A DNA stretch of 18,239 nt from an uncultured Myxococcales bacterium (GTDB lineage Bacteria > Myxococcota > Myxococcia > Myxococcales > Vulgatibacteraceae), in contig CAZDGH010000067.1 in the NCBI GenBank assembly GCA_964504805.1, forward strand, positions 1 through 18,239. The letters run 5' to 3'. Position 1 is the first letter of the stretch, and each line of letters begins with the position of its first letter. Below are positions 1 through 15,035 of this stretch, piece after piece. The notes under the pieces were generated by a model. The model had not been told where the DNA came from. It did no database searches and saw only the letters and a program-made list of their open reading frames with translations. A program made the position numbers and the translations under genes.

Positions 1-5
1 CGCCG

Positions 6-287
6 GTGCCCTCGGCGACGCCGCCGCCCGGCGTGCCCGAGCGCAACACCCGCGCCGCGCTCCTCGCGCAGCTCGCCGCGCTGCAGGAGCGCATCGGCCG
101 CCTCGAGGACGATCGCGACGACGGCCCGCCCGGCCTCGCCGACCTCGTCGCCCGCGTCGACCGCCTCGAGGCCCTCGCCTCCACCGAGCTCACGGTGCTG
201 CGCACCGTCGTCGATCTGCTCGTGGAGAAAGGCGTGCTCTCGCGCGAGGAGTACTTCGCGCGGATGCGGAAGGCGCAGGGCGGGTGA
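6..287 (+). CDS. Hypothetical small coiled-coil protein. It may extend 5' beyond the window edge.
   Basis: The ORF has a GTG at 6 and a TGA at 285-287. The predicted helix-rich, Leu/Arg/Asp-rich segment looks coiled-coil-like (LAALQERIGRLEDD...VDRLEALAS). I recognise no family. It lies 5 nt from the window edge, so the true start is uncertain. Confidence 0.4.
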   Translation: MPSATPPPGVPERNTRAALLAQLAALQERIGRLEDDRDDGPPGLADLVARVDRLEALASTELTVLRTVVDLLVEKGVLSREEYFARMRKAQGG

Positions 288-290
288 GGT

Positions 291-446
291 CAGGCTCCGG
301 GCTCCAGGCGAGGACCGGCTCCAGGCTCCAGGCTCCTGACTCCAGCCGGCAGGCGGCTCGGCGCTCCGCGCCTCGCGCTCGACCGTCGCAGCAGGCTCCG
401 CCGCGAAGCGGCGGGGGTTGCTGGAGCGTGGAGCCTGGAGCCTGCC
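291..446. repeat. Copy A of a ~155-bp intergenic element with terminal inverted repeats (GGCTCCAGGCTCCAGG ... CCTGGAGCCTGGAGCC) and a conserved core, GCTCGGCGCTCCGCGCCTCGCGCTC.
   Basis: Seen directly in the sequence. Left arm ggctccaggctccaggctcc at 315-336. Right arm ggagcctggagcctg at 430-444, the reverse complement of the left arm. A near-identical core and arms recur at 13219..13378. It sits immediately 3' of the stop codon of the 6..287 ORF. Confidence 0.6.
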
Positions 447-461
447 TCTAGCCTCTCCGCC

Positions 462-1229
462 TTACTTCGGCGCCATCCGCAACGACGCGTCCAGCCGGAT
501 CGTCTCGCCGTTGAGATACGCGTTGCGGGCGATCGCCTCGACGAGCTGGCCGTACTCGGCGGGATCGCCGAGGCGCTTCGGGAAGGGGATCCCGGCGGCG
601 AGGGAGACGCGGGCGGCCTCGGGCAGCGAGGCGAGGAGCGGCGTGTCGAAGAGGCCCGGGGCGATGGTGACCACGCGGATGCCGACGGCGGAGAGGTCGC
701 GGGCGGCCGGGAGGGTGAGGCCGACGACGCCGCCCTTCGAGGCGGCGTAGGCGACCTGGCCGATCTGGCCGTCGAACGCGGCGACCGAGGCGGTGTTGAC
801 GACGACGCCGCGCTCGCCGGTCGGCAGCGGCGTCGCCTTGGCCATGGCGGCGGCGGAGAGCCGGAGCACGTTGAAGGTGCCGACCAGGTTCACGCCGATC
901 ACCTTCTGGAACAGCTCGAGGTCGTGCGGCTCGCCCTCCTTGGTGAGCGTGCGCGCGGCCCAGCCGACGCCGGCGCAGCTCACGGCGATGCGCAGCGTGC
1001 CGAGCTCGCCCGCCCTGGCGACGGCGGCCTTCACGTCGGCCTCGCTCTGCACGTCCGCCTGCGCGAACGCGGCGCCGTCGCCGAGCTCCTTGGCGAAGGC
1101 CGCGCCCTTCTCCGCGTCCCGATCGACGATGACGACCTTCGCGCCCGCGCGGTGCAGCGTGCGGGCGGTGGCGGCGCCGAGCCCCGAGGCCCCGCCGGTG
1201 ACGAGTGCGACCGCTCCCTGGATCTCCAT
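462..1229 (-). CDS. Short-chain dehydrogenase/reductase of the 3-hydroxyacyl-CoA dehydrogenase type-2 / HSD17B10 family.
   Basis: 255 aa, starting [22 protein letters not shown] (Rossmann TGGASGLG). It is near-collinear with HSD17B10 ([35 protein letters not shown], Yxxx[18 protein letters not shown]). ATG at 1229-1227 with an AAGGAGGAG RBS 6 nt upstream; TAA stop at 464-462. The 639-aa track ORF is a 5' shadow extension. Confidence 0.9.
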
Positions 1230-8541: not shown

Positions 8542-9225
8542 GTGTCCAACGAGCTCGTGGTCGTCATCGGCATGGGGCAGTTCGGCGAGGTGGTGGCGAG
8601 GACGCTCGGCGGCCGCGGCCGCGAGGTGCTCGTCCTCGACCGCTCCGAGGAGCGGATCGAGGACCTCAAGGACGCGGTGCCCCGCGCCGTCCGCGCCGAC
8701 TCCACCGACGAGGGCGCGATGCGCGCGCTGGCGGTGGCCGAGGCGAAGACCGCGGTGGTGGCGCTGGGCGAGGAGGACTTCGAGGCGGCGGTGCTCACGG
8801 TCGCGCTGCTCAAGCAGCTCGGCGTGCCGCAGATCATCGTCCGCGCCTCGTCCCGCACCCACGGCCGGATCTTCGAGCTCGTCGGGGCGACGCGGGTGGT
8901 GTTCCCGGAGCTGCAGATGGGCGAGGTGCTGGCGCGGTCGCTCCTCGGCCGCGGCGTCCACGCCTACTTCGCGCTCGAGACGGGCCACACCCTCGCCGAG
9001 GTCGAGGTCCGCCCGGAGTGGGCGCACAGGAGCCTCGCCGAGCTCGAGCTGCGCAAGCGCTACGGCGTGCACGTGCTGGCGATCCGGCGGCCGGTCTCCG
9101 CCGGCGACGGTACCCTCCGCGACCACACCGTGGAGCTGCCCGCGCCGACCGAGGCGCTGCGCACCGGCGACCACCTCGTGCTCGTCGGCACGCAGGACGC
9201 GGTCTCGGGGCTCACCGGTGCGTGA
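8542..9225 (+). CDS. trkA: K+ transporter peripheral RCK subunit (TrkA/KtrA; RCK_N NAD-binding domain plus RCK_C).
   Basis: 227 aa. LVVVIGMGQFGEVVARTL...GREVLVLD is a Rossmann GxGxxG motif, followed by an RCK_C-like C-terminus (LAELELRKRYGVHVLAIRR...GDHLVLVG). GTG at 8542 with a GGAGGAT RBS 5 nt upstream. It lies 16 bp after the trkH stop, so the two are probably an operon. Confidence 0.85.
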   Translation: MSNELVVVIGMGQFGEVVARTLGGRGREVLVLDRSEERIEDLKDAVPRAVRADSTDEGAMRALAVAEAKTAVVALGEEDFEAAVLTVALLKQLGVPQIIVRASSRTHGRIFELVGATRVVFPELQMGEVLARSLLGRGVHAYFALETGHTLAEVEVRPEWAHRSLAELELRKRYGVHVLAIRRPVSAGDGTLRDHTVELPAPTEALRTGDHLVLVGTQDAVSGLTGA

Positions 9226-10957
9226 GGCCTGGGTCACCGCCGCGCTGCTCCTGGCCGCGGGCTGCGTCGACCCGGTGTGCCGGGAGGACGCGGACTGCGC
9301 GGACGGTCTCGGCTGCGTGGAGGGCGCGTGCGTCGAGGCGAGCGCCCAGGAGGCCTGCGGCGACGGCGTCGTCGAGGCGGGTGAGGACTGCGACGAAGGC
9401 GCCGCCAACGGCGCGCCGGAGAGCGCGTGCGGCCCCGGCTGCCTCCAGGCCCGGTGCGGCGACGGCGTGGTGCAGCCGTCGCTCGGCGAGAGCTGCGACG
9501 AGGGCGAGGACGCGAACTCGGCCGGCGGCGGCTGCGGCCCGCGCTGCGTGCCGGTCGCGTGCGGCGACGGCGTCGCCGAAGCCGCCGAGGCGTGCGACGA
9601 AGGCCCCGAGGCGAACCTGCGCGGCCGACACTGCCGCGCCGACTGCACCGCGCCGAGCTGCGGCGACGGCGTCGTCGACGCGCCGTACGAGGACTGCGAC
9701 GACGCGGCGGCCTCGACCGACTTCTCGGAGACCTGCACCGGCGCCTGCCGCGTGCCGTCGTGCGGCGACGGCGTGATCACGCGGGCGACGGAGGCGTGCG
9801 ACGGCGGCCCGGGCTGCACGGCCGCGTGCGCCTTCGAGGGCTGCGGCGCCGTCGAGCTCGTGGCGGGCGCCGGGTTCACGCTGGTACGCCGCGCCGACGG
9901 CGTGCTGCGGGCCGCCGGCAGCGACGCGCAGGGCGAGCTCGGCCGCGTCGACCGCGGCGCGGACGTCCTCTCGCCCGAGGACCTCGACGGCGCCGGCCTG
10001 GTGCAGCTCGCCGCGGGCGAGGCGTTCGTGATCGCGCGGACCGCCGCGGGCACGGTGGTGACCTGGGGCTCGAACGTCGCCGGCCAGCGCGGGCTCTCCG
10101 TGCTCGAGGAGCGCCCGGGCCGCTCGGAGGTGCCGGGGCTGCCGCCGATCGTCGACGTCGCCGCCGGCGCGGTGTCCGCGTTCGCGCTCGACGAGGACGG
10201 CGCGATCTGGAGCTGGGGCGGCGCCTACTACCGCGAGCTCGGCGGCGACGACGGCGTCGTCGAGGCCTGCCCGATCGGCCACCGCTGCCGGCCCGAGCCA
10301 CGGCGGCTCGAGGTCGCCGGCGTGCGCTTCGTCGACGTCGCCGCCGGCCCGTACACCGCGCTCGCGATCGACGAGCGGGGCGAGCTCTGGGGCTTCGGCC
10401 AGGCGGCGTTCGGCCAGCTCGGCCACGCCGTGGCCGAGGCGTGCCCGGACGGCGTGAACGTGTGCGTGCGCGCGCCGGACCGGGTGGGCGTCGGCGGCGT
10501 GGTGCGCGCCGCCGCCGGCCAGGAGTTCACGCTCTTCCTCGACCGCCGCGGCGCGCTCCGTGGCCTCGGCCGCATCGCCTACGCCGGCGCGCCGGCCGAC
10601 GCGCCCGAGCTCGTGGTGTCCACGCCCACCCCGATCCCGCTCGCGAGCGGCGCGCGGATCCACGACGTCGCCGCGGGGCCGTACCACGCCCTCGTCCTCG
10701 ACGAGGCCGGCGTCGTCCACGCCGGCGGCGGCGACGACGACGGCCGCCTGGGACGCGGGCCGTTCGTCGGCGTGACGCCGCTCGCGGAGGTGCCGGGTCT
10801 CGGCCGCGCCACGCAGGTGGCGGCGGCGCTCGCGCACTCGGGGGTGCTCCTCGACGACGGCTCGGTCGTCGCGTTCGGCACGGGCGCGAACGGCCAGCTC
10901 GGGCAAGGCGACGGCGCGCCGTCGGGCACGCCGGTGGCGTTCCCCGTCTGCCCCTAG
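9218..10957 (+). CDS. Lipoprotein with 5 N-terminal Myxococcus cysteine-rich repeats (CGDGVV..E.CD.G type), followed by RCC1-like beta-propeller repeats.
   Basis: 579 aa. Its GTG at 9218 overlaps the trkA stop by 8 nt. A short lipoprotein-type signal M/VREAWVTAALLLAAGC has a lipobox-like LAAGC. There are five ~34-aa repeats, each starting CGDGVV/A/I....E.CD.G. Six to seven RCC1-type blades follow (WGSNVAGQRG, WSWGGAYYRELG, WGFGQAAFGQLG, GRIAYAG, GGGDDDGRLG, FGTGANGQLGQG). TAG at 10955-10957. The 1356-aa track ORF is a shadow fusion. Confidence 0.7.
   Translation: MREAWVTAALLLAAGCVDPVCREDADCADGLGCVEGACVEASAQEACGDGVVEAGEDCDEGAANGAPESACGPGCLQARCGDGVVQPSLGESCDEGEDANSAGGGCGPRCVPVACGDGVAEAAEACDEGPEANLRGRHCRADCTAPSCGDGVVDAPYEDCDDAAASTDFSETCTGACRVPSCGDGVITRATEACDGGPGCTAACAFEGCGAVELVAGAGFTLVRRADGVLRAAGSDAQGELGRVDRGADVLSPEDLDGAGLVQLAAGEAFVIARTAAGTVVTWGSNVAGQRGLSVLEERPGRSEVPGLPPIVDVAAGAVSAFALDEDGAIWSWGGAYYRELGGDDGVVEACPIGHRCRPEPRRLEVAGVRFVDVAAGPYTALAIDERGELWGFGQAAFGQLGHAVAEACPDGVNVCVRAPDRVGVGGVVRAAAGQEFTLFLDRRGALRGLGRIAYAGAPADAPELVVSTPTPIPLASGARIHDVAAGPYHALVLDEAGVVHAGGGDDDGRLGRGPFVGVTPLAEVPGLGRATQVAAALAHSGVLLDDGSVVAFGTGANGQLGQGDGAPSGTPVAFPVCP
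9353..9840 (+). repeat. Tandem in-frame ~102-nt coding repeats (5 units) encoding the Myxococcus Cys-rich repeat module.
   Basis: tgcggcgacggcgt recurs at about 9356, 9458, 9560, 9659 and 9761. These are imperfect coding repeats, not CRISPR, because the spacers are themselves homologous. Confidence 0.6.
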
Positions 10958-10966
10958 GAACACGAA

Positions 10967-11005
10967 GGGCCCGCCCCGGAGCGCCGTCGCGTCCGTGGCG
11001 GGCCC
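10967..11005. terminator. Hairpin (9-bp GC stem gggcccgcc / ggcgggccc with a 21-nt loop) just 3' of the lipoprotein gene.
   Basis: The inverted repeat 10967-10975 / 10997-11005 is seen directly. It lies 10 nt after the TAG at 10957. No U-tract. Confidence 0.35.
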
Positions 11006-11047
11006 GTCGCACCGGGGGCGCCTCGTCGGCGGCCCCGTGGCACCGCG

Positions 11048-11066
11048 CGGGAGCGTGCCGCTCCCG
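11048..11066. terminator. Hairpin cgggagcg-tgc-cgctcccg (perfect 8-bp stem, 3-nt loop), 4 nt 3' of the SPFH gene stop on the minus strand.
   Basis: Seen directly. It sits between convergent genes and is a candidate intrinsic terminator for the minus-strand SPFH transcript. Confidence 0.4.
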
Positions 11067-11069
11067 GGG

Positions 11070-12203
11070 TCAGCCCGGCGCCTTCAGCTGCAGCATCGGC
11101 ATGGCGCCCTCGCCGAGGACGAGGTGCACCTGGCCGACCTTGGCCGCGAGCTCCTTGTACGCCTCGAGCTCCTTGAGGCGGACGAGGAGCGGGTTCTCGG
11201 CGAGGACCTTCGCGGTCTGCGCCAGCGACCGCGTGGCCGCGGTCTCCTCGCGGCGCAGGATCACGTTGGCCTCCGCCTCCTTGCCGGCCTCGATCACGCG
11301 GTTGAGCAGGGCCTTCATCTCGCCCGGCAGGACCACGTCCTTGACGCCGAACGACACCAGCCCGAGGCCGACCACCTCGGCGCGCGTCTTCACCTCGGCC
11401 GCGATCGCGCCGGCGAGCGCCTCGCGGGTCGCGAGGAGCTCGTCGAGCGTCGCCTCCGCCACGGCCTCGCGCGCCGCGAGCTGCATCGCGAGGTACAGGA
11501 CGTCGTCCGGCTGCCGCGCGACCGTCGCCAGCCGCACCGGGTCGGCGACGAGGTACGCCGCCGAGAGGTTGAGGCGAAGGGTGACCTTGTCCTTCGTCAT
11601 CACCTCCTGGCCGGTGACGTGGAGGAGCCGCTCGCGGAGGTCGAGCACCGAGAGCAGCACCTTGCGGACCACCGTCCAGGCCGCGTGGCGGCCGGGGCCG
11701 AGCACCTCGTCGAGCGTGCCGTCGACGTAGCGGAGCGCGACCGAGCCCTGGGGCACGGTGACCTCCACGTGGTCGGACGCCGGGACGAGCGCCTTCACCT
11801 CGTCGCGGAGCGGCGCCGTGGCGACGCCGGAGACGTCGAGCGTCTCCACCGTCACGGCGGGCACGAGCACGCGGGCGCCCTCGGCGGTCCGCTTCTCGGT
11901 GCGCTCCCACGTGGCGACGGCGTGCTCGCCGGCGCCGAGCCACCTCGCCGGGCGGCCGCGCCGGGTGACCAGCGCGCGCTCGTCCGGGCGCACGGTGACG
12001 AGGGCGATCTCGCCCTCCGGCGCCAGCGCGAGCTGCTCCGCCCGGAGCGGCAGGACGAGCGCCTCGCCGTCGAGGCGGAAGACCTCGAGCTTCCGGAACG
12101 GGCGCCACAGCCGGTGGCGGCCCGGCCCGAGCCACCTCGCCGGCACGCCGTTCACGTGCACCACGGCGCGCTGGCCGAGCGGGACGTCGAGCTTCAGGTA
12201 CAT
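11070..12203 (-). CDS. SPFH/band-7 (stomatin/prohibitin-like) domain protein with a ~170-aa N-terminal domain containing three LGPG.H..W repeats.
   Basis: 377 aa. ATG at 12203-12201 with a GGAGAGGAGGTG RBS 6 nt upstream. The C-terminal two-thirds is SPFH-like (VMTKDKVTLRLNLSAAYLVADPVRLA...REAVAEATLDELLATREALAGAIAAEVKTRAEVVGLGLVSFGVKDVVLPGEMKALLNRVIEAGKEAEANVI). The N-terminal repeats are PARWLGPGRHRLW, PARWLGAGEHAVATW and LGPGRHAAWTV. The 537-aa and 502-aa track ORFs are shadow extensions. Confidence 0.75.
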   Translation of the reverse strand: MYLKLDVPLGQRAVVHVNGVPARWLGPGRHRLWRPFRKLEVFRLDGEALVLPLRAEQLALAPEGEIALVTVRPDERALVTRRGRPARWLGAGEHAVATWERTEKRTAEGARVLVPAVTVETLDVSGVATAPLRDEVKALVPASDHVEVTVPQGSVALRYVDGTLDEVLGPGRHAAWTVVRKVLLSVLDLRERLLHVTGQEVMTKDKVTLRLNLSAAYLVADPVRLATVARQPDDVLYLAMQLAAREAVAEATLDELLATREALAGAIAAEVKTRAEVVGLGLVSFGVKDVVLPGEMKALLNRVIEAGKEAEANVILRREETAATRSLAQTAKVLAENPLLVRLKELEAYKELAAKVGQVHLVLGEGAMPMLQLKAPG

Positions 12204-12431
12204 GCTGCACCTCCTCTCCCCTTCCTTGCTGCGGTCGAAAAAGTGGGAGCGCCGCCTCCGCGAGGCCCGCGTCGCCGTCCCCGACGCCCCGGGTCGCGGC
12301 ATGCGGCGCGCCTGCGGCGCGGGGGCGGGGCGGGCCGTCGCTGCGCTGGCCCCGTCCCGGCGTCCGCCGCGGGCCGCACGGCCACGCCGGGCCGGCTCCG
12401 CGGGCGTCGCTCGGGCGGCTCTCCCGTTGCG

Positions 12432-12503
12432 TGCTCCGAGGGGGATTCGAACCCCCGACCACCGGCGTAAAGCCGGTGCCCTACCAGGCTGGGCGATCGG
12501 AGC
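12432..12503 (-). tRNA. tRNA gene. Acceptor stem, D-arm and T-arm are canonical. The anticodon arm is atypical. The anticodon is ambiguous: TAC (Val) if the loop is 5 nt, or UUA if a 7-nt loop forms.
   Basis: Reverse complement: GCTCCGA-TC-GCCC-AGCCTGGTA-GGGC-A-CCGGC-TTTAC-GCCGG-TGGTC-GGGGG-TTCGAAT-CCCCC-TCGGAGC-A. The 7-bp acceptor stem GCTCCGA/TCGGAGC is perfect. The D-arm GCCC/GGGC has an AGCCTGGTA loop. The T-arm GGGGG-TTCGAAT-CCCCC is present. Total length is 72 nt, two short of a standard tRNA, and the deficit falls in the anticodon loop: a perfect 7-bp stem CACCGGC/GCCGGTG encloses only TTTAC. No CCA is encoded. Confidence 0.65.
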
Positions 12504-12681: not shown

Positions 12682-13215
12682 ATGAAAGCTCGGCTTCTCT
12701 ACGATGCGCGCACCATGCGCGCCCTCCTCCTCGCCCTTCCTCTCCTCGTCCTCGGCGCCTGCGCCGGCGACGAGCCGGTGCGTGAGAACCCGCTCGGCAC
12801 CTGCGCCACCAACGACGAGTGCCACACCGAGGAGTACTGCGGCGGCTTCCTCGGCGGCGACTGCGGCACCTCGGGGCAGCGCGGCGGCTGCACCCTGCGG
12901 CTCACCGAGTGCGATCCCGTCGACGAGCCGGTCTGCGGCTGCGACGGCAGCGTCTACCCGAGCACCTGCGAGGCCGCGCGCAACGGCGTCGCCCTCTCCG
13001 CCCTCGGCGGCTGCGAGGTGCCCGCCGGCCGCTTCGCCTGCGGCCCCCGCCTCTGCGACGCCGCCACCGAGTACTGCCGCGACGCCGGCTCGTCCGTCGG
13101 CTGCCAGCCCCTCCCCGACGGCTGCGACGGCACCGACTGCGCCTGCTTCGCCGGCGACCTGCCGGGCTCCTGCACGTCGTGCGCGGTCGCTGGAGGCCTG
13201 GTGCTGGACTGCTGA
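12682..13215 (+). CDS. Cysteine-rich lipoprotein with a Kazal-like (serine protease inhibitor-type) domain.
   Basis: 177 aa. The start is ATG at 12682, or alternatively the in-frame ATG at 12715. Lipoprotein signal MRALLLALPLLVLGAC. The mature part has about 24 Cys. The segment GGCTLRLTECDPVDEPVCGCDGSVYPSTCEAARNGVALSALGGC fits Kazal spacing C-x6-C-x7-(PVCG.DG..Y)-C-...-C. TGA at 13213-13215. The 485-aa track ORF is a shadow extension. Confidence 0.65.
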   Translation: MKARLLYDARTMRALLLALPLLVLGACAGDEPVRENPLGTCATNDECHTEEYCGGFLGGDCGTSGQRGGCTLRLTECDPVDEPVCGCDGSVYPSTCEAARNGVALSALGGCEVPAGRFACGPRLCDAATEYCRDAGSSVGCQPLPDGCDGTDCACFAGDLPGSCTSCAVAGGLVLDC

Positions 13216-13218
13216 AAG

Positions 13219-13378
13219 CAGGCTCCAGGCTCCAGGCTTCAGGCTCCAGCCAGCAGGTAGCTCGGCGCTCCGCGCCTCGCGCTCCCCAGCTGGCGAGCTT
13301 GCCGGGGCCCCCAGCCTGGTGCCGCCGATACGAAGCGGTGGGTGCTGGAGCCCGGAGCCTGGAGCCTGGAGCCTCAGG
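13219..13378. repeat. Copy B of the ~155-bp terminal-inverted-repeat intergenic element (same family as 291..446).
   Basis: Left arm ggctccaggctccaggct at 13221-13238. Right arm ggagcctggagcctggagcc at 13356-13375. Core gcaggtagctcggcgctccgcgcctcgcgctc is identical to copy A apart from one or two substitutions. The gaagcggtgggtgctggagc block is shared. It starts 4 nt after the stop of the Kazal-like gene. Confidence 0.6.
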
Positions 13379-13823
13379 CCCGGAAGGCCTGCTACACCGC
13401 GGGAGCCCGGCGCGGGCGCCGCCGCACCGGGGGGACGGGCTGGGGCGGGCCGCGAGGGTGGGTTGCCGAACGGCGGCCACGACGCCCCGTGGACGGGGCG
13501 GCGCCCGCGCGCGGGCTCCGGGACGGGGGGGCGCCCGGCCGGAGCCGGCAGCGCCGCATCCCTCACGACGAGCGGCCTCGGGCTTCGGCCGTCGCGTGTC
13601 TCTGTATTCGGATTCTGTGTACACGTCTCCCGTCGCGCCGCGGCTCTCGCCGTGCGCCGATCGCAGCCCGTGCGATCCGGGTCTCTCTCTGCCGCGCCGG
13701 AGCCGGTGCCCGTGGGCCCTTGGCTCCCCCGCCTCACCGCCGCCGCCCGCCGCGTGCGCGCCCGGGCCGAGCCCAGGAACGTCGAAGGCCGGGTCCCCTT
13801 CGTGGGAGCCCGGCCTCCGAGGA

Positions 13824-13840
13824 CCAGCGAGAATCGCTGG
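13824..13840. terminator. Small perfect hairpin ccagcga-gaa-tcgctgg, 6 nt 3' of the candidate 42-aa ORF on the minus strand.
   Basis: 7-bp stem with a 3-nt loop, seen directly. A candidate terminator for the FHA/small-ORF transcript. Confidence 0.3.
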
Positions 13841-13845
13841 GAAAC

Positions 13846-13974
13846 CTAGGGGACCGGCCCTCCCGAGGGGAAGAAGCCCAGGTCGCGGATCGTGCCGCTG
13901 GCCGCGTCGTACGGGCACGGGCCGGCGGGCGTCGCCGCGTTCCTGCCGTCGCGCTGTCCGTGGTTCCACGCCAT
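13846..13974 (-). CDS. Candidate small protein of 42 aa (MAWNHGQRDGRNAATPAGPCPYDAASGTIRDLGFFPSGGPVP), downstream of the FHA gene on the same strand.
   Basis: ATG at 13974-13972 with a GAGGTGG RBS about 4 nt upstream. 40 of 42 codons end in G or C, close to the bias of real genes in this genome. TAG at 13848-13846, followed by the hairpin. There are no homology clues, so the call is weak. Confidence 0.25.
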   Translation of the reverse strand: MAWNHGQRDGRNAATPAGPCPYDAASGTIRDLGFFPSGGPVP

Positions 13975-14079
13975 GGCCACCTCGTCTCGATCCGACTGCG
14001 GCGCCGGCGGGGACCGCCGACGAACGAACGGGAAGCTAGCAGCGACGACCCGAAAAGTCAACCAACCGCTGTCTCGGAT

Positions 14080-14922
14080 TTACGCGCCCTCGCGGTAGGT
14101 GAACACCGCACCGCCCACCTCGAGCAGGTCGCCGTCGCCCAGGGGCGCCTTCTGGACCCGGGCGCCGTTCACCTTCACCCGGCCGAGGAGGCCGAGCTTC
14201 CGCACCGCGTAGCCGCCGTCGCCCCGGCGCTCCAGGGTCGCCGCCTCGTCGGCGCCGACCTCGGGCACGCGGAGCTGGCAGCGGTCCGAGGCGCCCAGCA
14301 CGTTCGCGGCGTGGCGGAGCGCGTGGACCCGCACCGGCGTCACCTGGTGCTGCACCAGGTGCGGCTCGAGCAGCGCGGCCTTCTCCCGCCGCAGCCGCGC
14401 GAGCTCGGCAGGGGCGATGTGGCGGGTGGTGCTCCCGCTCGCGTCCTCCCGCCCGGCGGCCTCGAGCGGCTCGAAGCTCCTCGACAGCGCCTCGTAGTCG
14501 AAGCGCCGCGCCTCGAGCGTGATCAGCTCCGCCTCTCGCTCCTCGCCGCCGGAGGGGCCGTCGTCGAGGACCAGCTCGCCGGTGACCAGCGGCAGCTCCT
14601 CCTCGACGAGCGCGGTGTCCGGGATCGACTCCATGACGCCCTGCCGGTAGCGGACGACGTGGGCGCCGAGCTCGATCCGGTCGCCGTCGGCGAGCGGCCG
14701 CTTGTACTCGCGGCGGCCGTTCACGAAGGTGCCGTTGGTGGTGCCGAGGTCCTCGAGCCACATCGCGCCGTCCTTGCCGTACACGCGGGCGTGCCGGCGC
14801 GAGACGATCGGATCGTCGAGGCGGATGGCGGCGCCCGCCTCGCGGCCGAGCACCATGCACGAGCCGTCCCAGACGACGTCGCGCAGCTTCTTCCCGTCCT
14901 TCACGATCTCGAACGTCGCCAT
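14080..14922 (-). CDS. Protein with two FHA (forkhead-associated, phospho-Thr binding) domains.
   Basis: 280 aa from MATFEIVKDGKKL. ATG at 14922-14920 with a GGGAGGTGG RBS 5 nt upstream. N-terminal FHA: VLGREAGAAIRLDDPIVSRRHARVY...LEDLGTTNGTFVNGRR...GDRIELG. C-terminal FHA: LGASDRCQLRVPEVGADEAATLERRGDGGYAVRKLGLLGRVKVNGARV...GDLLEVGGAVF. It is divergent from the Ser/Thr kinase gene. Confidence 0.8.
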   Translation of the reverse strand: MATFEIVKDGKKLRDVVWDGSCMVLGREAGAAIRLDDPIVSRRHARVYGKDGAMWLEDLGTTNGTFVNGRREYKRPLADGDRIELGAHVVRYRQGVMESIPDTALVEEELPLVTGELVLDDGPSGGEEREAELITLEARRFDYEALSRSFEPLEAAGREDASGSTTRHIAPAELARLRREKAALLEPHLVQHQVTPVRVHALRHAANVLGASDRCQLRVPEVGADEAATLERRGDGGYAVRKLGLLGRVKVNGARVQKAPLGDGDLLEVGGAVFTYREGA

Positions 14923-15035
14923 GGAGCCACCTCCCGGTGCGTGTGCGGGGCGCGGACACCCGTAGCAGAAGCTCGCGGCTCGACGACATCCCATGCCCCG
15001 GATCGGGCCGCCGCGACCGGGCTAACATCGCGGCC

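Follow-up and report, generated by a model that had tools for sequence, protein, structure and literature searches.

Stop-proximal heptamer arrays paired as candidate 3'-end hairpins: two copies of a dispersed repeat in a Myxococcales contig

In this work, we focus on two copies of a short intergenic element, termed copy A and copy B, that lie at gene 3' ends in a contig from an uncultured Myxococcales bacterium of the Vulgatibacteraceae (contig CAZDGH010000067.1 of assembly GCA_964504805.1), and on the heptamer arrays that connect them to a dispersed repeat family. The window is this whole contig at its full length of 18,239 nt; its G+C content is 72-82%, and its proteins have their nearest relatives in Myxococcota, under Kofleriaceae and Myxococcota metagenome-assembled genome (MAG) names. 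An earlier note, drawn from the bare sequence, had reported an element present twice, at 291-446 and 13219-13378. Both copies were found there, and they extend over about 288-461 (copy A) and 13216-13380 (copy B). The stops, arms and cores are the following, where TRF stands for Tandem Repeats Finder and GC3 for the G+C content of third codon positions.

285-287, plus strand: TGA stop of the upstream gene (partial open reading frame, ORF, 3-287, plus strand; GC3 0.90-0.98 in frame), 5 nt before the first full heptamer of copy A
291-346, plus strand: left arm of copy A, about 7 GGCTCCA-type units (TRF period 7 at 291-345)
347-419, plus strand: core (spacer) of copy A, with an exact 25-mer at 356-380 and a right-hand part ending GAAGCGG..GGG..TGC that are common to both copies
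420-446, plus strand: right arm of copy A, GC TGGAGCG TGGAGCC TGGAGCC TG (TRF period 7 at 421-444), complementary to the left arm
462-464, minus strand: TAA stop of a convergent short-chain dehydrogenase gene (462-1229, minus strand; Pfam adh_short), 19 nt from the last right-arm unit
13213-13215, plus strand: TGA stop of a Cys-rich putative lipoprotein gene (12682-13215, plus strand), 5 nt before the first unit of copy B
13219-13250, plus strand: left arm of copy B, GGCTCCA GGCTCCA GGCTTCA GGCTCCA GC (TRF period 7 at 13219-13249)
13251-13343, plus strand: core of copy B, about 20 nt longer than that of copy A, with the 25-mer at 13260-13284
13344-13378, plus strand: right arm of copy B, GC TGGAGCC CGGAGCC TGGAGCC TGGAGCC T (TRF period 7 at 13345-13374)

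The gap of 174 nt between the convergent stops TGA 285-287 and TAA 462-464 is entirely occupied by copy A. For copy B, the next minus-strand gene end, that of an FHA-domain gene (14080-14994, Pfam E 1e-22), is about 700 nt away. Both copies sit just past a stop, as had been claimed, and in each of them 5 nt separate the TGA from the first full unit. They were also described as non-coding, which holds: the flanking genes have a strong third-position G+C signal, and no codon-position GC periodicity is found inside either element, which rules out the arms as protein-coding sequence. The terminal inverted repeats are confirmed as well and can be defined more closely, as (GGCTCCA)n on the left and (TGGAGCC)n on the right, with a complementarity of 88% over 25 nt in copy A and 94% over 31 nt in copy B. 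TRF reports a period of 7 in all four arms, which are mostly made of 4 units, and the left arm of copy A reads GGCTCCG GGCTCCA ... GGCTCCA GGCTCCA GGCTCCT GACTCCA. In the window, the arm 20-mer GGCTCCAGGCTCCAGGCTCC has 8 matches at up to 3 mismatches, every one of them inside the four arms, for an expectation of 0.01.

The left arm of copy A also contains a 24-nt tandem duplication at 286-333 (TRF), which begins within the TGA stop and consists of GAGG[T/A]C[A/C]GGCTCC[G/A]GGCTCCAGGC repeated twice. This duplication carries the single GAGGTCA (288-294) and GAGGACC (310-316) units of that arm, and it shows slippage in place after the copy A array was established.

The core 25-mer GCTCGGCGCTCCGCGCCTCGCGCTC occurs exactly twice in the window (0.01 expected) and is itself a degenerate heptamer run (GCTCGGC GCTCCGC GCCTCGC GCTC), which TRF reports with a period of 7 only in copy B, at 13260-13285. 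The recurrence of the core, formerly described as almost base-for-base, stands for this exact 25-mer and for two blocks, one on the left (317-380 against 13221-13284, 64 nt, 91%) and one on the right (398-444 against 13322-13368, 47 nt, 81%), but not for the middle, where an indel of about 20 nt brings the overall column identity down to 78%. Beyond the arms, the flanks of copies A and B do not align, and therefore we regard them as related copies at unrelated sites and not as a segmental duplication, which had been offered as the alternative. Chance similarity or a local segmental duplication could draw on the fact that only two copies are visible in the window, but it is refuted in practice by arm and core matches far beyond chance, by the unaligned flanks and by the recurrence of the arm architecture in many genomes.

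Copy A is identical, base for base, in an independent Logan assembly. Four independent contigs of the source organism were recovered from Logan assemblies, and two of them end inside the two elements: one short contig (L002) stops at window position ~357, in the copy A core, and another (L125) at 13246, in the copy B left arm. Such contig ends fit the presence of further copies in the source genome, but low coverage may also explain them.

When folded, both copies form the long stem that had been predicted from their arms, with -108.9 kcal/mol for copy A (z -3.6) and -110.4 kcal/mol for copy B (z -5.1), and the opposite strands of both fold about equally well. The cores alone show no structure beyond that of shuffled sequence (z -0.45 in copy A and +0.3 in copy B), and the spacers of the wider family described below are barely above shuffles (mean z -0.8). 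The stem is thus the arms, and spacers that would themselves be palindromes were dropped as a candidate on that mean value. A small GC hairpin of the GGCGC-TCC-GCGCC type was also considered as a common core module and rejected, its density in the cores (1.57 per kb) being that of the background (1.54 per kb).

Signals of other RNA classes were searched for in the same sequences. The Rfam 15 covariance models give nothing in either element even at E<=1, and a tRNA is the only match above the gathering threshold in the window. No promoter-like site appears in a scan of the whole window or in a closer scan around copy B. Terminators with a U-tract number 3 in the whole window for 2.3 expected, none of them at either copy or within the surrounding 1.6 kb. 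Copies A and B do resemble intrinsic terminators in being G+C-rich hairpins directly after a gene, but they carry no U-tract, their "loops" measure 77-97 nt or longer and their stems 25-38 bp; the class of intrinsic terminators was rejected for them since no U-tract follows the hairpin. The other two convergent junctions of the window carry strong plain G+C hairpins, likewise devoid of U-tracts (2814-2864, z -4.3, and 10956-11072, z -2.4), and a co-directional stop-to-start spacer (2428-2512) is unstructured (z -0.4). Copies A and B hold the position that is taken by plain hairpins at these other convergent junctions. Because of this position, and because U-tract terminators do not exceed chance, we favor a 3'-end RNA stem for the two copies.

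The search for relatives in other genomes separated the core from the arms. The exact core 25-mer has 0 matches in 185,579 species genomes (one genome per species) and 0 matches in 241 million JGI metagenome records, and a looser pattern of arm, GGCGCTCCGCGCC and arm gave 4 matches in metagenome contigs, all of them by chance, in coding DNA that contains no arrays. In contrast, the arm 20-mer is found at more than 106 loci in the species genomes, so that the copy search proposed in the earlier note shows the arms to be multi-copy and dispersed. Among the matches listed, about 28 arm loci belong to one Myxococcales MAG (CALFEQ01) and 6 to JAFAER01, while the remaining ones are scattered over Myxococcota, Vicinamibacteria and other Acidobacteriota, Gemmatimonadota, Planctomycetota and a few Proteobacteria. 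CALFEQ01 is a Labilithrix-related MAG, whose glutaryl-CoA dehydrogenase is 89% identical to the homologue of Labilithrix luteola. In viral contigs, the arm 20-mer occurs at 8 loci, mostly in long arrays with matches recurring every 21 nt. Conversely, no (GGCTCCA)n-type array is present in 77 kb of related Myxococcota DNA taken without selection, and thus the distribution of the family is patchy. The core, which had been presented as the heart of the element, is private (0 real matches) and structured like a shuffle; the arms define the family, in which copies A and B form a private sub-family by their common spacer. The two copies belong to a dispersed repeat family present in some soil bacteria.

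These results bear on the idea, raised before, that the element could be a small RNA. In that explanation, the core would encode a small RNA or be a cis-regulatory RNA that the arms merely frame, and the 25-nt block identical in both copies speaks in its favor. The lack of any Rfam match at E<=1 and of promoter-like sites in the window scans, a core that folds no better than shuffles, its absence from the other genomes and metagenomes searched, and the unrelated cores of family members elsewhere together make it very improbable.

The family statistics that follow rest on the arm-20-mer loci listed in these searches, about 0.9 Mb of loci in all. Once duplicates are removed, they contain 36 distinct (GGCTCCA)n-spacer-(TGGAGCC)n elements, with spacers of 10-418 nt that are mutually unrelated in an all-against-all BLAST, except for nested arrays of a second heptamer, (AGTCCTC)n / (GAGGACT)n. 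The order of the arrays is strict: when adjacent arrays of at least 20 nt and at most 420 nt apart are counted, GGCTCCA is followed by TGGAGCC 26 times, and the reverse order is found 0 times. Whichever strand is transcribed, GGCUCCA units therefore always precede UGGAGCC units in the RNA.

The position of the arrays relative to genes was examined in CALFEQ01, genes being taken as long ORFs with high third-position G+C. There, 23 of 48 arrays lie at most 16 nt downstream of a stop codon in the sense orientation, for 1.7% of random positions, and the antisense count is 0. Many arrays touch the stop codon, as in TGA|GGCTCCA, TAA|GGCTCCA and TAGA|GGCTCCA. Only one arm abuts a gene end in 19 of the 36 pairs. 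The arrays of CALFEQ01 also have a preferred length, with 17 of 2 units, 22 of 3, 31 of 4, 4 of 5 and 1 of 7, that is, a sharp peak at 4 units. In JAFAER01, the stop codons of tuf and rpmG have an array immediately behind them, and 7 nt separate the end of the rpmG element from tRNA-Trp.

Such regularity would also fit a recognition site, either for a DNA-binding protein or for a single-strand transposase, and these are the main rivals to an RNA stem. With a protein, the double-stranded arrays would act at the DNA level as sites where four heptamers are bound cooperatively, by a nucleoid-associated protein, gyrase, a polar transcription roadblock or a global regulator, and the hairpin potential would be a by-product of arrays standing at both ends of a convergent region. 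A unit number fixed at about 4, the strict polarity relative to the gene, the existence of partnerless single arrays and of pairs of different, non-complementary heptamers, and an absence of strand asymmetry in RNA folding are all in line with this, and paired sites with variable spacing have a precedent in Geobacter (PMC2700814). However, in the 19 of 36 pairs with one arm at a gene end, to which copy B belongs with its right arm about 700 nt off, the second arm serves no gene, and the occurrence of the GGCTCCA heptamer in several phyla would require a common binding protein. Of candidates for such a protein, we know of none. We hold this explanation to be unlikely.

Two side observations concern the arrays and spacers of the family. 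The second heptamer family, (AGTCCTC)n / (GAGGACT)n, has 20 arrays in the 222 kb of CALFEQ01 loci, against 57 arrays of the GGCTCCA family (both by TRF), and is often nested in GGCTCCA hairpins. About 80 nt of conserved sequence, including GCGCGCGCGAAGCGCGCGC, accompany it in four places. Arrays of this second family were recorded at the following positions.

L071, 7104-7203 and 7333-7362: second-heptamer arrays
L027, 5769-5847: second-heptamer array
L063, 307-382 and 7245-7301: second-heptamer arrays
L080, 3672-3710 and 6614-6666: second-heptamer arrays
L103, 5077-5108: second-heptamer array

The other observation is an element with an unusual content. In a Myxococcales MAG (PNBO01000053; L045, 2602-3034), GGCTCCA/TGGAGCC arms surround a 377-nt spacer with the gene of a 23S rRNA intervening-sequence protein (PF05635, E 3.5e-22). 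The gene has an in-frame stop near its start, and its reading frame continues into the right arm. Intervening sequences of rRNA are long stems that carry the gene of this same protein, and this element may recall them by analogy.

The comparison of related genomes at orthologous junctions bears on how whole elements arise. In CALFEQ01 (L071), the glutaryl-CoA dehydrogenase gene and a convergent SpoU-type methylase gene are about 420 nt apart, nearly all of which is a 403-nt element, whereas in a relative (L123) that has the same two genes, with a dehydrogenase 89% identical, the stops are 3 nt apart (TAG CGT TCA). The second junction is found in the succinate dehydrogenase (sdh) operon of CALFEQ01 (L071, 4530-4667), which reads TGA, (GGCTCCA)5, a 75-nt spacer, (TGGAGCC)4, TGATGTC and then the ATG of sdhA, for an element of 138 nt. 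In a syntenic relative (L124, 8119-8130), the same sdh junction is TGA GGTCACCATC ATG, with a spacer of 10 nt. Since the relatives have only 3 or 10 nt at these junctions, whole elements look like insertions, and the sequence comparison lends support to whole-element gain at two orthologous junctions of this related carrier. The sdh junction further indicates that the spacer is not ancestral intergenic DNA and that it arrived with the arms or after them. In the filled sdh site, the last arm unit provides a GGAG 9 nt before the sdhA start; this GGAG would be buried in the stem, which suggests that translation is coupled to unwinding by the terminating ribosome. For the window copies, the neighboring genes provide no orthologous site: the best homologues of the dehydrogenase by copy A do not exceed 79% identity and lack synteny, and for the lipoprotein by copy B the only close match is the protein itself.

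A target-site duplication was found neither at the borders of the two window copies nor in about 20 family members inspected, whose flanks only prolong the palindrome by NA...TN; the single 3-nt repeat (TGA) at the sdh junction is no more than chance would give. This matters for the comparison with miniature inverted-repeat transposable elements (MITEs), one of the classes to which the architecture had been likened. MITEs such as the Correia/NEMIS elements of Neisseria and ERIC are 100-200 nt long, have terminal inverted repeats, are co-transcribed with their neighbors and form hairpins cut by RNase III; their terminal repeats are fixed, they make a target-site duplication (TA for Correia) and their internal sequence is homologous. 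Copies A and B are similar to them in size and in having inverted terminal arms (88-94% complementary), albeit arms that are variable-number tandem arrays. Unlike MITEs, the GGCTCCA family has no target-site duplication, no fixed repeats and no homologous interior beyond the core of copies A and B. No autonomous element with GGCTCCA-type ends was noticed in the family loci. A classical MITE is therefore not what these copies are: the supposed terminal repeats are arrays of variable length, and the interiors of the family are unrelated.

The other resemblance that had been pointed out, to repetitive extragenic palindromic (REP) sequences and bacterial interspersed mosaic elements (BIMEs), holds in part. 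REP sequences are known to stabilize mRNA 3' ends and to act on translation when they are near a stop codon. Two inverted REP units around a spacer form a REP doublet forming a hairpin (REPIN), whose spacers are conserved within a family. REP and Correia elements are known to act as 3'-end RNA stems of the exonuclease-blocking, RNase III-substrate type. Like REP, BIME and REPIN elements, those of the GGCTCCA family are structured, non-coding and extragenic, lie at gene 3' ends or between operon genes, are multi-copy and patchy, and make no target duplication. A REP unit is itself an imperfect palindrome of 20-40 nt, usually with a GTAG or CGTC tag (PMC3733652). The GGCTCCA arm differs in being a direct tandem array, of which only both arms together make a palindrome; it begins with (N)A GGCTCCA and has no GTAG/CGTC tag, GTAG being found once, in the core of copy B only. 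The unrelated spacers of the family also set it apart from REPINs.

The insertions and these comparisons bring in the second main rival, a purely selfish, non-autonomous mobile element, MITE- or REPIN-like, in which a remote transposase would recognize the heptamer arms and from which the host would gain nothing, the placement at stop codons merely reflecting harmless insertion sites or a short target motif. It accounts for the same core of copies A and B between unrelated flanks, for presence or absence at two orthologous junctions with a spacer that is not ancestral DNA, for a patchy distribution with many copies per carrier, for the tolerance of elements in operons and between convergent genes, and for contigs of independent assemblies that break inside them; the absence of target duplication is as in IS200/IS605 and in single-strand transposition of the RAYT (REP-associated tyrosine transposase) type. 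However, the spacers are unrelated among family members, unlike those of MITEs or REPINs, and the arms are variable-number tandem arrays and not fixed terminal repeats. No transposase or RAYT gene was noticed beside any array in the about 0.9 Mb of loci, where no systematic search was made for them. Moreover, harmlessness alone cannot explain a placement on the coding strand 0-16 nt past the stop, or the sharp four-unit mode. We consider this explanation possible, and the most credible after the one that we favor.

The closest published parallels are tandem heptamers. The genomes of Xanthomonas campestris and X. axonopodis each contain about 185 GGGAATC arrays, 89-93% of which are intergenic and most of which have four units (PMC4692102). 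These arrays form 70-75 convergent pairs, they lie mostly 0-50 bp past a stop on the coding strand, and most are transcribed (Rehm et al. 2015, PLoS One, PMC4692102). They have no link to insertion sequences, their function is unknown, and their authors lean to G-quadruplexes; over-representation of intergenic heptamers in bacteria has been noted since 2007 and is still unexplained (PMC4692102). The GGCTCCA family is like them in its dispersed tandem heptamers, its four-unit preference, its stop-proximal location on the coding strand and its convergent pairs. It is unlike them in its hosts, which are Myxococcota and Acidobacteriota MAGs, in the insertion supported at orthologous junctions, and in the two copies with a common spacer.

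A further difference lies in the unit, since GGCTCCA has no G-tracts and the quadruplex explanation favored for Xanthomonas GGGAATC and Nostoc GGGGAYT does not apply to it. A G-quadruplex or i-motif repeat would draw on the architecture and four-unit preference shared with the Xanthomonas arrays (PMC4692102). Yet GGCTCCA has no GGG, only GG runs with 5-nt loops, and from its sequence it could at best form a weak two-layer quadruplex, with which the pairing of the two arms, worth about -68 kcal/mol, would compete. For this family, the quadruplex is thus hardly credible.

In Geobacter metallireducens, site classes 1-3 consist of pairs on opposite strands, each of 3-5 tandem hepta-, octa- or nonanucleotides, at a variable distance (Aklujkar et al. 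2009, PMC2700814). There are tens of such sites per genome, between genes and also inside operons (proB-proA), and the authors' guess, made without a test, is that they are binding sites of a global regulator (PMC2700814). The pairing of arrays on opposite strands and the variable spacing are shared with the GGCTCCA family. The units are different (MTYCTGA, GTTGCTYN and TCTCCGTS[Y]), and some Geobacter sites have insertion sequences at a fixed distance, a placement not seen for GGCTCCA arrays. The family can also be compared with the cyanobacterial short tandemly repeated repetitive (STRR) sequences and the TAACTGA repeats of Beggiatoaceae, which are likewise dispersed intergenic tandem heptamers, across distant phyla. 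The TAACTGA repeats are located immediately before start codons and hardly ever occur in inverted orientation (PMC4679880), whereas GGCTCCA arrays often follow stop codons and form inverted pairs. The earlier note was not aware of a described element with this sequence, and indeed the arm sequence was not found in the papers of the literature searched. The architecture, however, is published, in Xanthomonas and in Geobacter. Copies A and B are best filed with the stop-proximal, four-heptamer, convergent-pair repeats, as a new unit in new phyla.

Two features of the units themselves may be recorded here. On rotation, several of these heptamers contain a CAG/CTG motif: CCCCAGT of STRR1, TAACTGA, MTYCTGA of Geobacter, GGACTGA of the second family and AGCCTGG, the complement of GGCTCCA. 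In addition, each junction between GGCTCCA units creates a CCAGG (CCWGG) site.

Taken together, we favor the explanation that copies A and B are insertion-derived dispersed palindromic repeats, for which we propose the term heptamer-armed hairpins, and that they form a long RNA hairpin at the 3' end; we infer both the RNA function and the spread, and we give the whole a probability of about 0.5. The anatomy, the position, the polarity, the family recurrence and the presence or absence at orthologous sites in a related carrier are observed. An element would typically comprise about 4 GGCTCCA units on the coding strand, 0-16 nt past the stop, then an arbitrary spacer of 10-418 nt and an inverted (TGGAGCC)n array. 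It would be transcribed as 3' untranslated sequence, behind the upstream gene on one strand and behind the convergent gene on the other. The arms would then pair into a G+C-rich stem of 25-38 bp, the base of which would draw the two flanks together. As a 3'-end structure, this stem might be a barrier to 3'-to-5' exonucleases, a likely substrate of RNase III and a site of pause or stop for RNA polymerase, and it may hinder read-through between convergent genes. Insertions in operons, even in an essential one such as sdh, would be tolerated in that the fold could set the upstream stop beside the ribosome-binding site and start of the next gene, at the base of the stem. As for new copies, a single-strand (REPIN/RAYT-like) route or a template-switching route would fit better than cut-and-paste transposition, because there is no target duplication, the polarity is strict and single arrays exist.

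Several points weigh against this explanation. Unpaired arrays exist between operon genes (L034 and L041), and several GGCTCCA arrays have a non-complementary (GAGGACT)n partner downstream, so that the hairpin is not always formed; a perfect arm-pair duplex reaches -68.1 kcal/mol, and a GGCTCCA array with (GAGGACT)n only -15.7 kcal/mol. When both strands of the 36 elements are folded, the strand of the abutting gene has no consistent advantage in energy or in G-U pairs. As intrinsic terminators, stems that enclose 77-400 nt of spacer and lack a U-tract perform poorly, and elements in co-transcribed clusters (the sdh operon; tuf-rpmG-tRNA-Trp) cannot be strong terminators. Simple copying of a master element does not easily account for spacers that are unrelated, and only two copies are visible for the source genome, in the 18,239-nt window. 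Finally, the proposed role in RNA is built on sequence and predicted structure.

The window contains other features that are unrelated to the two copies. Just downstream of copy B, a perfect 14-nt inverted repeat (13410-13423 / 13497-13510, 73 nt apart), of unrelated sequence, lies in a region of about 700 nt (13380-14080) that contains no convincing gene. At 9212-10957 (plus strand), a large protein is encoded, with RCC1-like repeats and Cys-rich repeats of the CGDGVV type, and the direct DNA repeats at about 9330-10760 are the coding repeats of this RCC1-like protein and not mobile DNA. The tRNA gene mentioned above lies at 12431-12503 (minus strand, Rfam 60.1 bits); ARAGORN labels it "tRNA-Stop", with the anticodon TTA, which would read UAA. 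Its anticodon arm is CCGGC-UUUAC-GCCGG, in which the covariance model aligns a 5-nt loop, 2 nt below the consensus, whereas ARAGORN opens a C-G pair to reach a loop of 7 nt (CUUUACG), with an unusual C at position 37 as a result. This tRNA looks of the Glu/Gln type; if it is not a pseudo-tRNA, it could be an ochre suppressor. In this window, TAA is the stop of the dehydrogenase gene.

What the family contributes is a clean case, in new phyla, of four-unit, stop-proximal, convergent-pair heptamers whose unit is unable to form a stable G-quadruplex. This argues against quadruplex formation as the common feature of such repeats, and it removes the single mechanism so far put forward for the best-studied case, that of Xanthomonas. 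The two junctions at which the element is present in one genome and absent from its relative, one of them within the succinate dehydrogenase operon, argue for insertion over growth in place. In practice, such arrays break short-read assemblies and can mislead ORF callers in high-G+C genomes. Beyond this, we raise, as a speculation that we would not ourselves expect to hold, that arrays of about 4 heptamers after stop codons, often mirrored, are a general, cross-phylum punctuation of 3' ends that does not depend on the sequence of the unit, one conserved machine reading or producing GGCTCCA, GGGAATC, Geobacter and perhaps STRR arrays alike. In this view, the GGCTCCA family would show whole elements being inserted precisely at the stop codon. 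If so, the candidates for this machine would be the terminating ribosome, Rho, an RNase, a single-strand DNA transposase or a template-switching polymerase with a 7-nt step.

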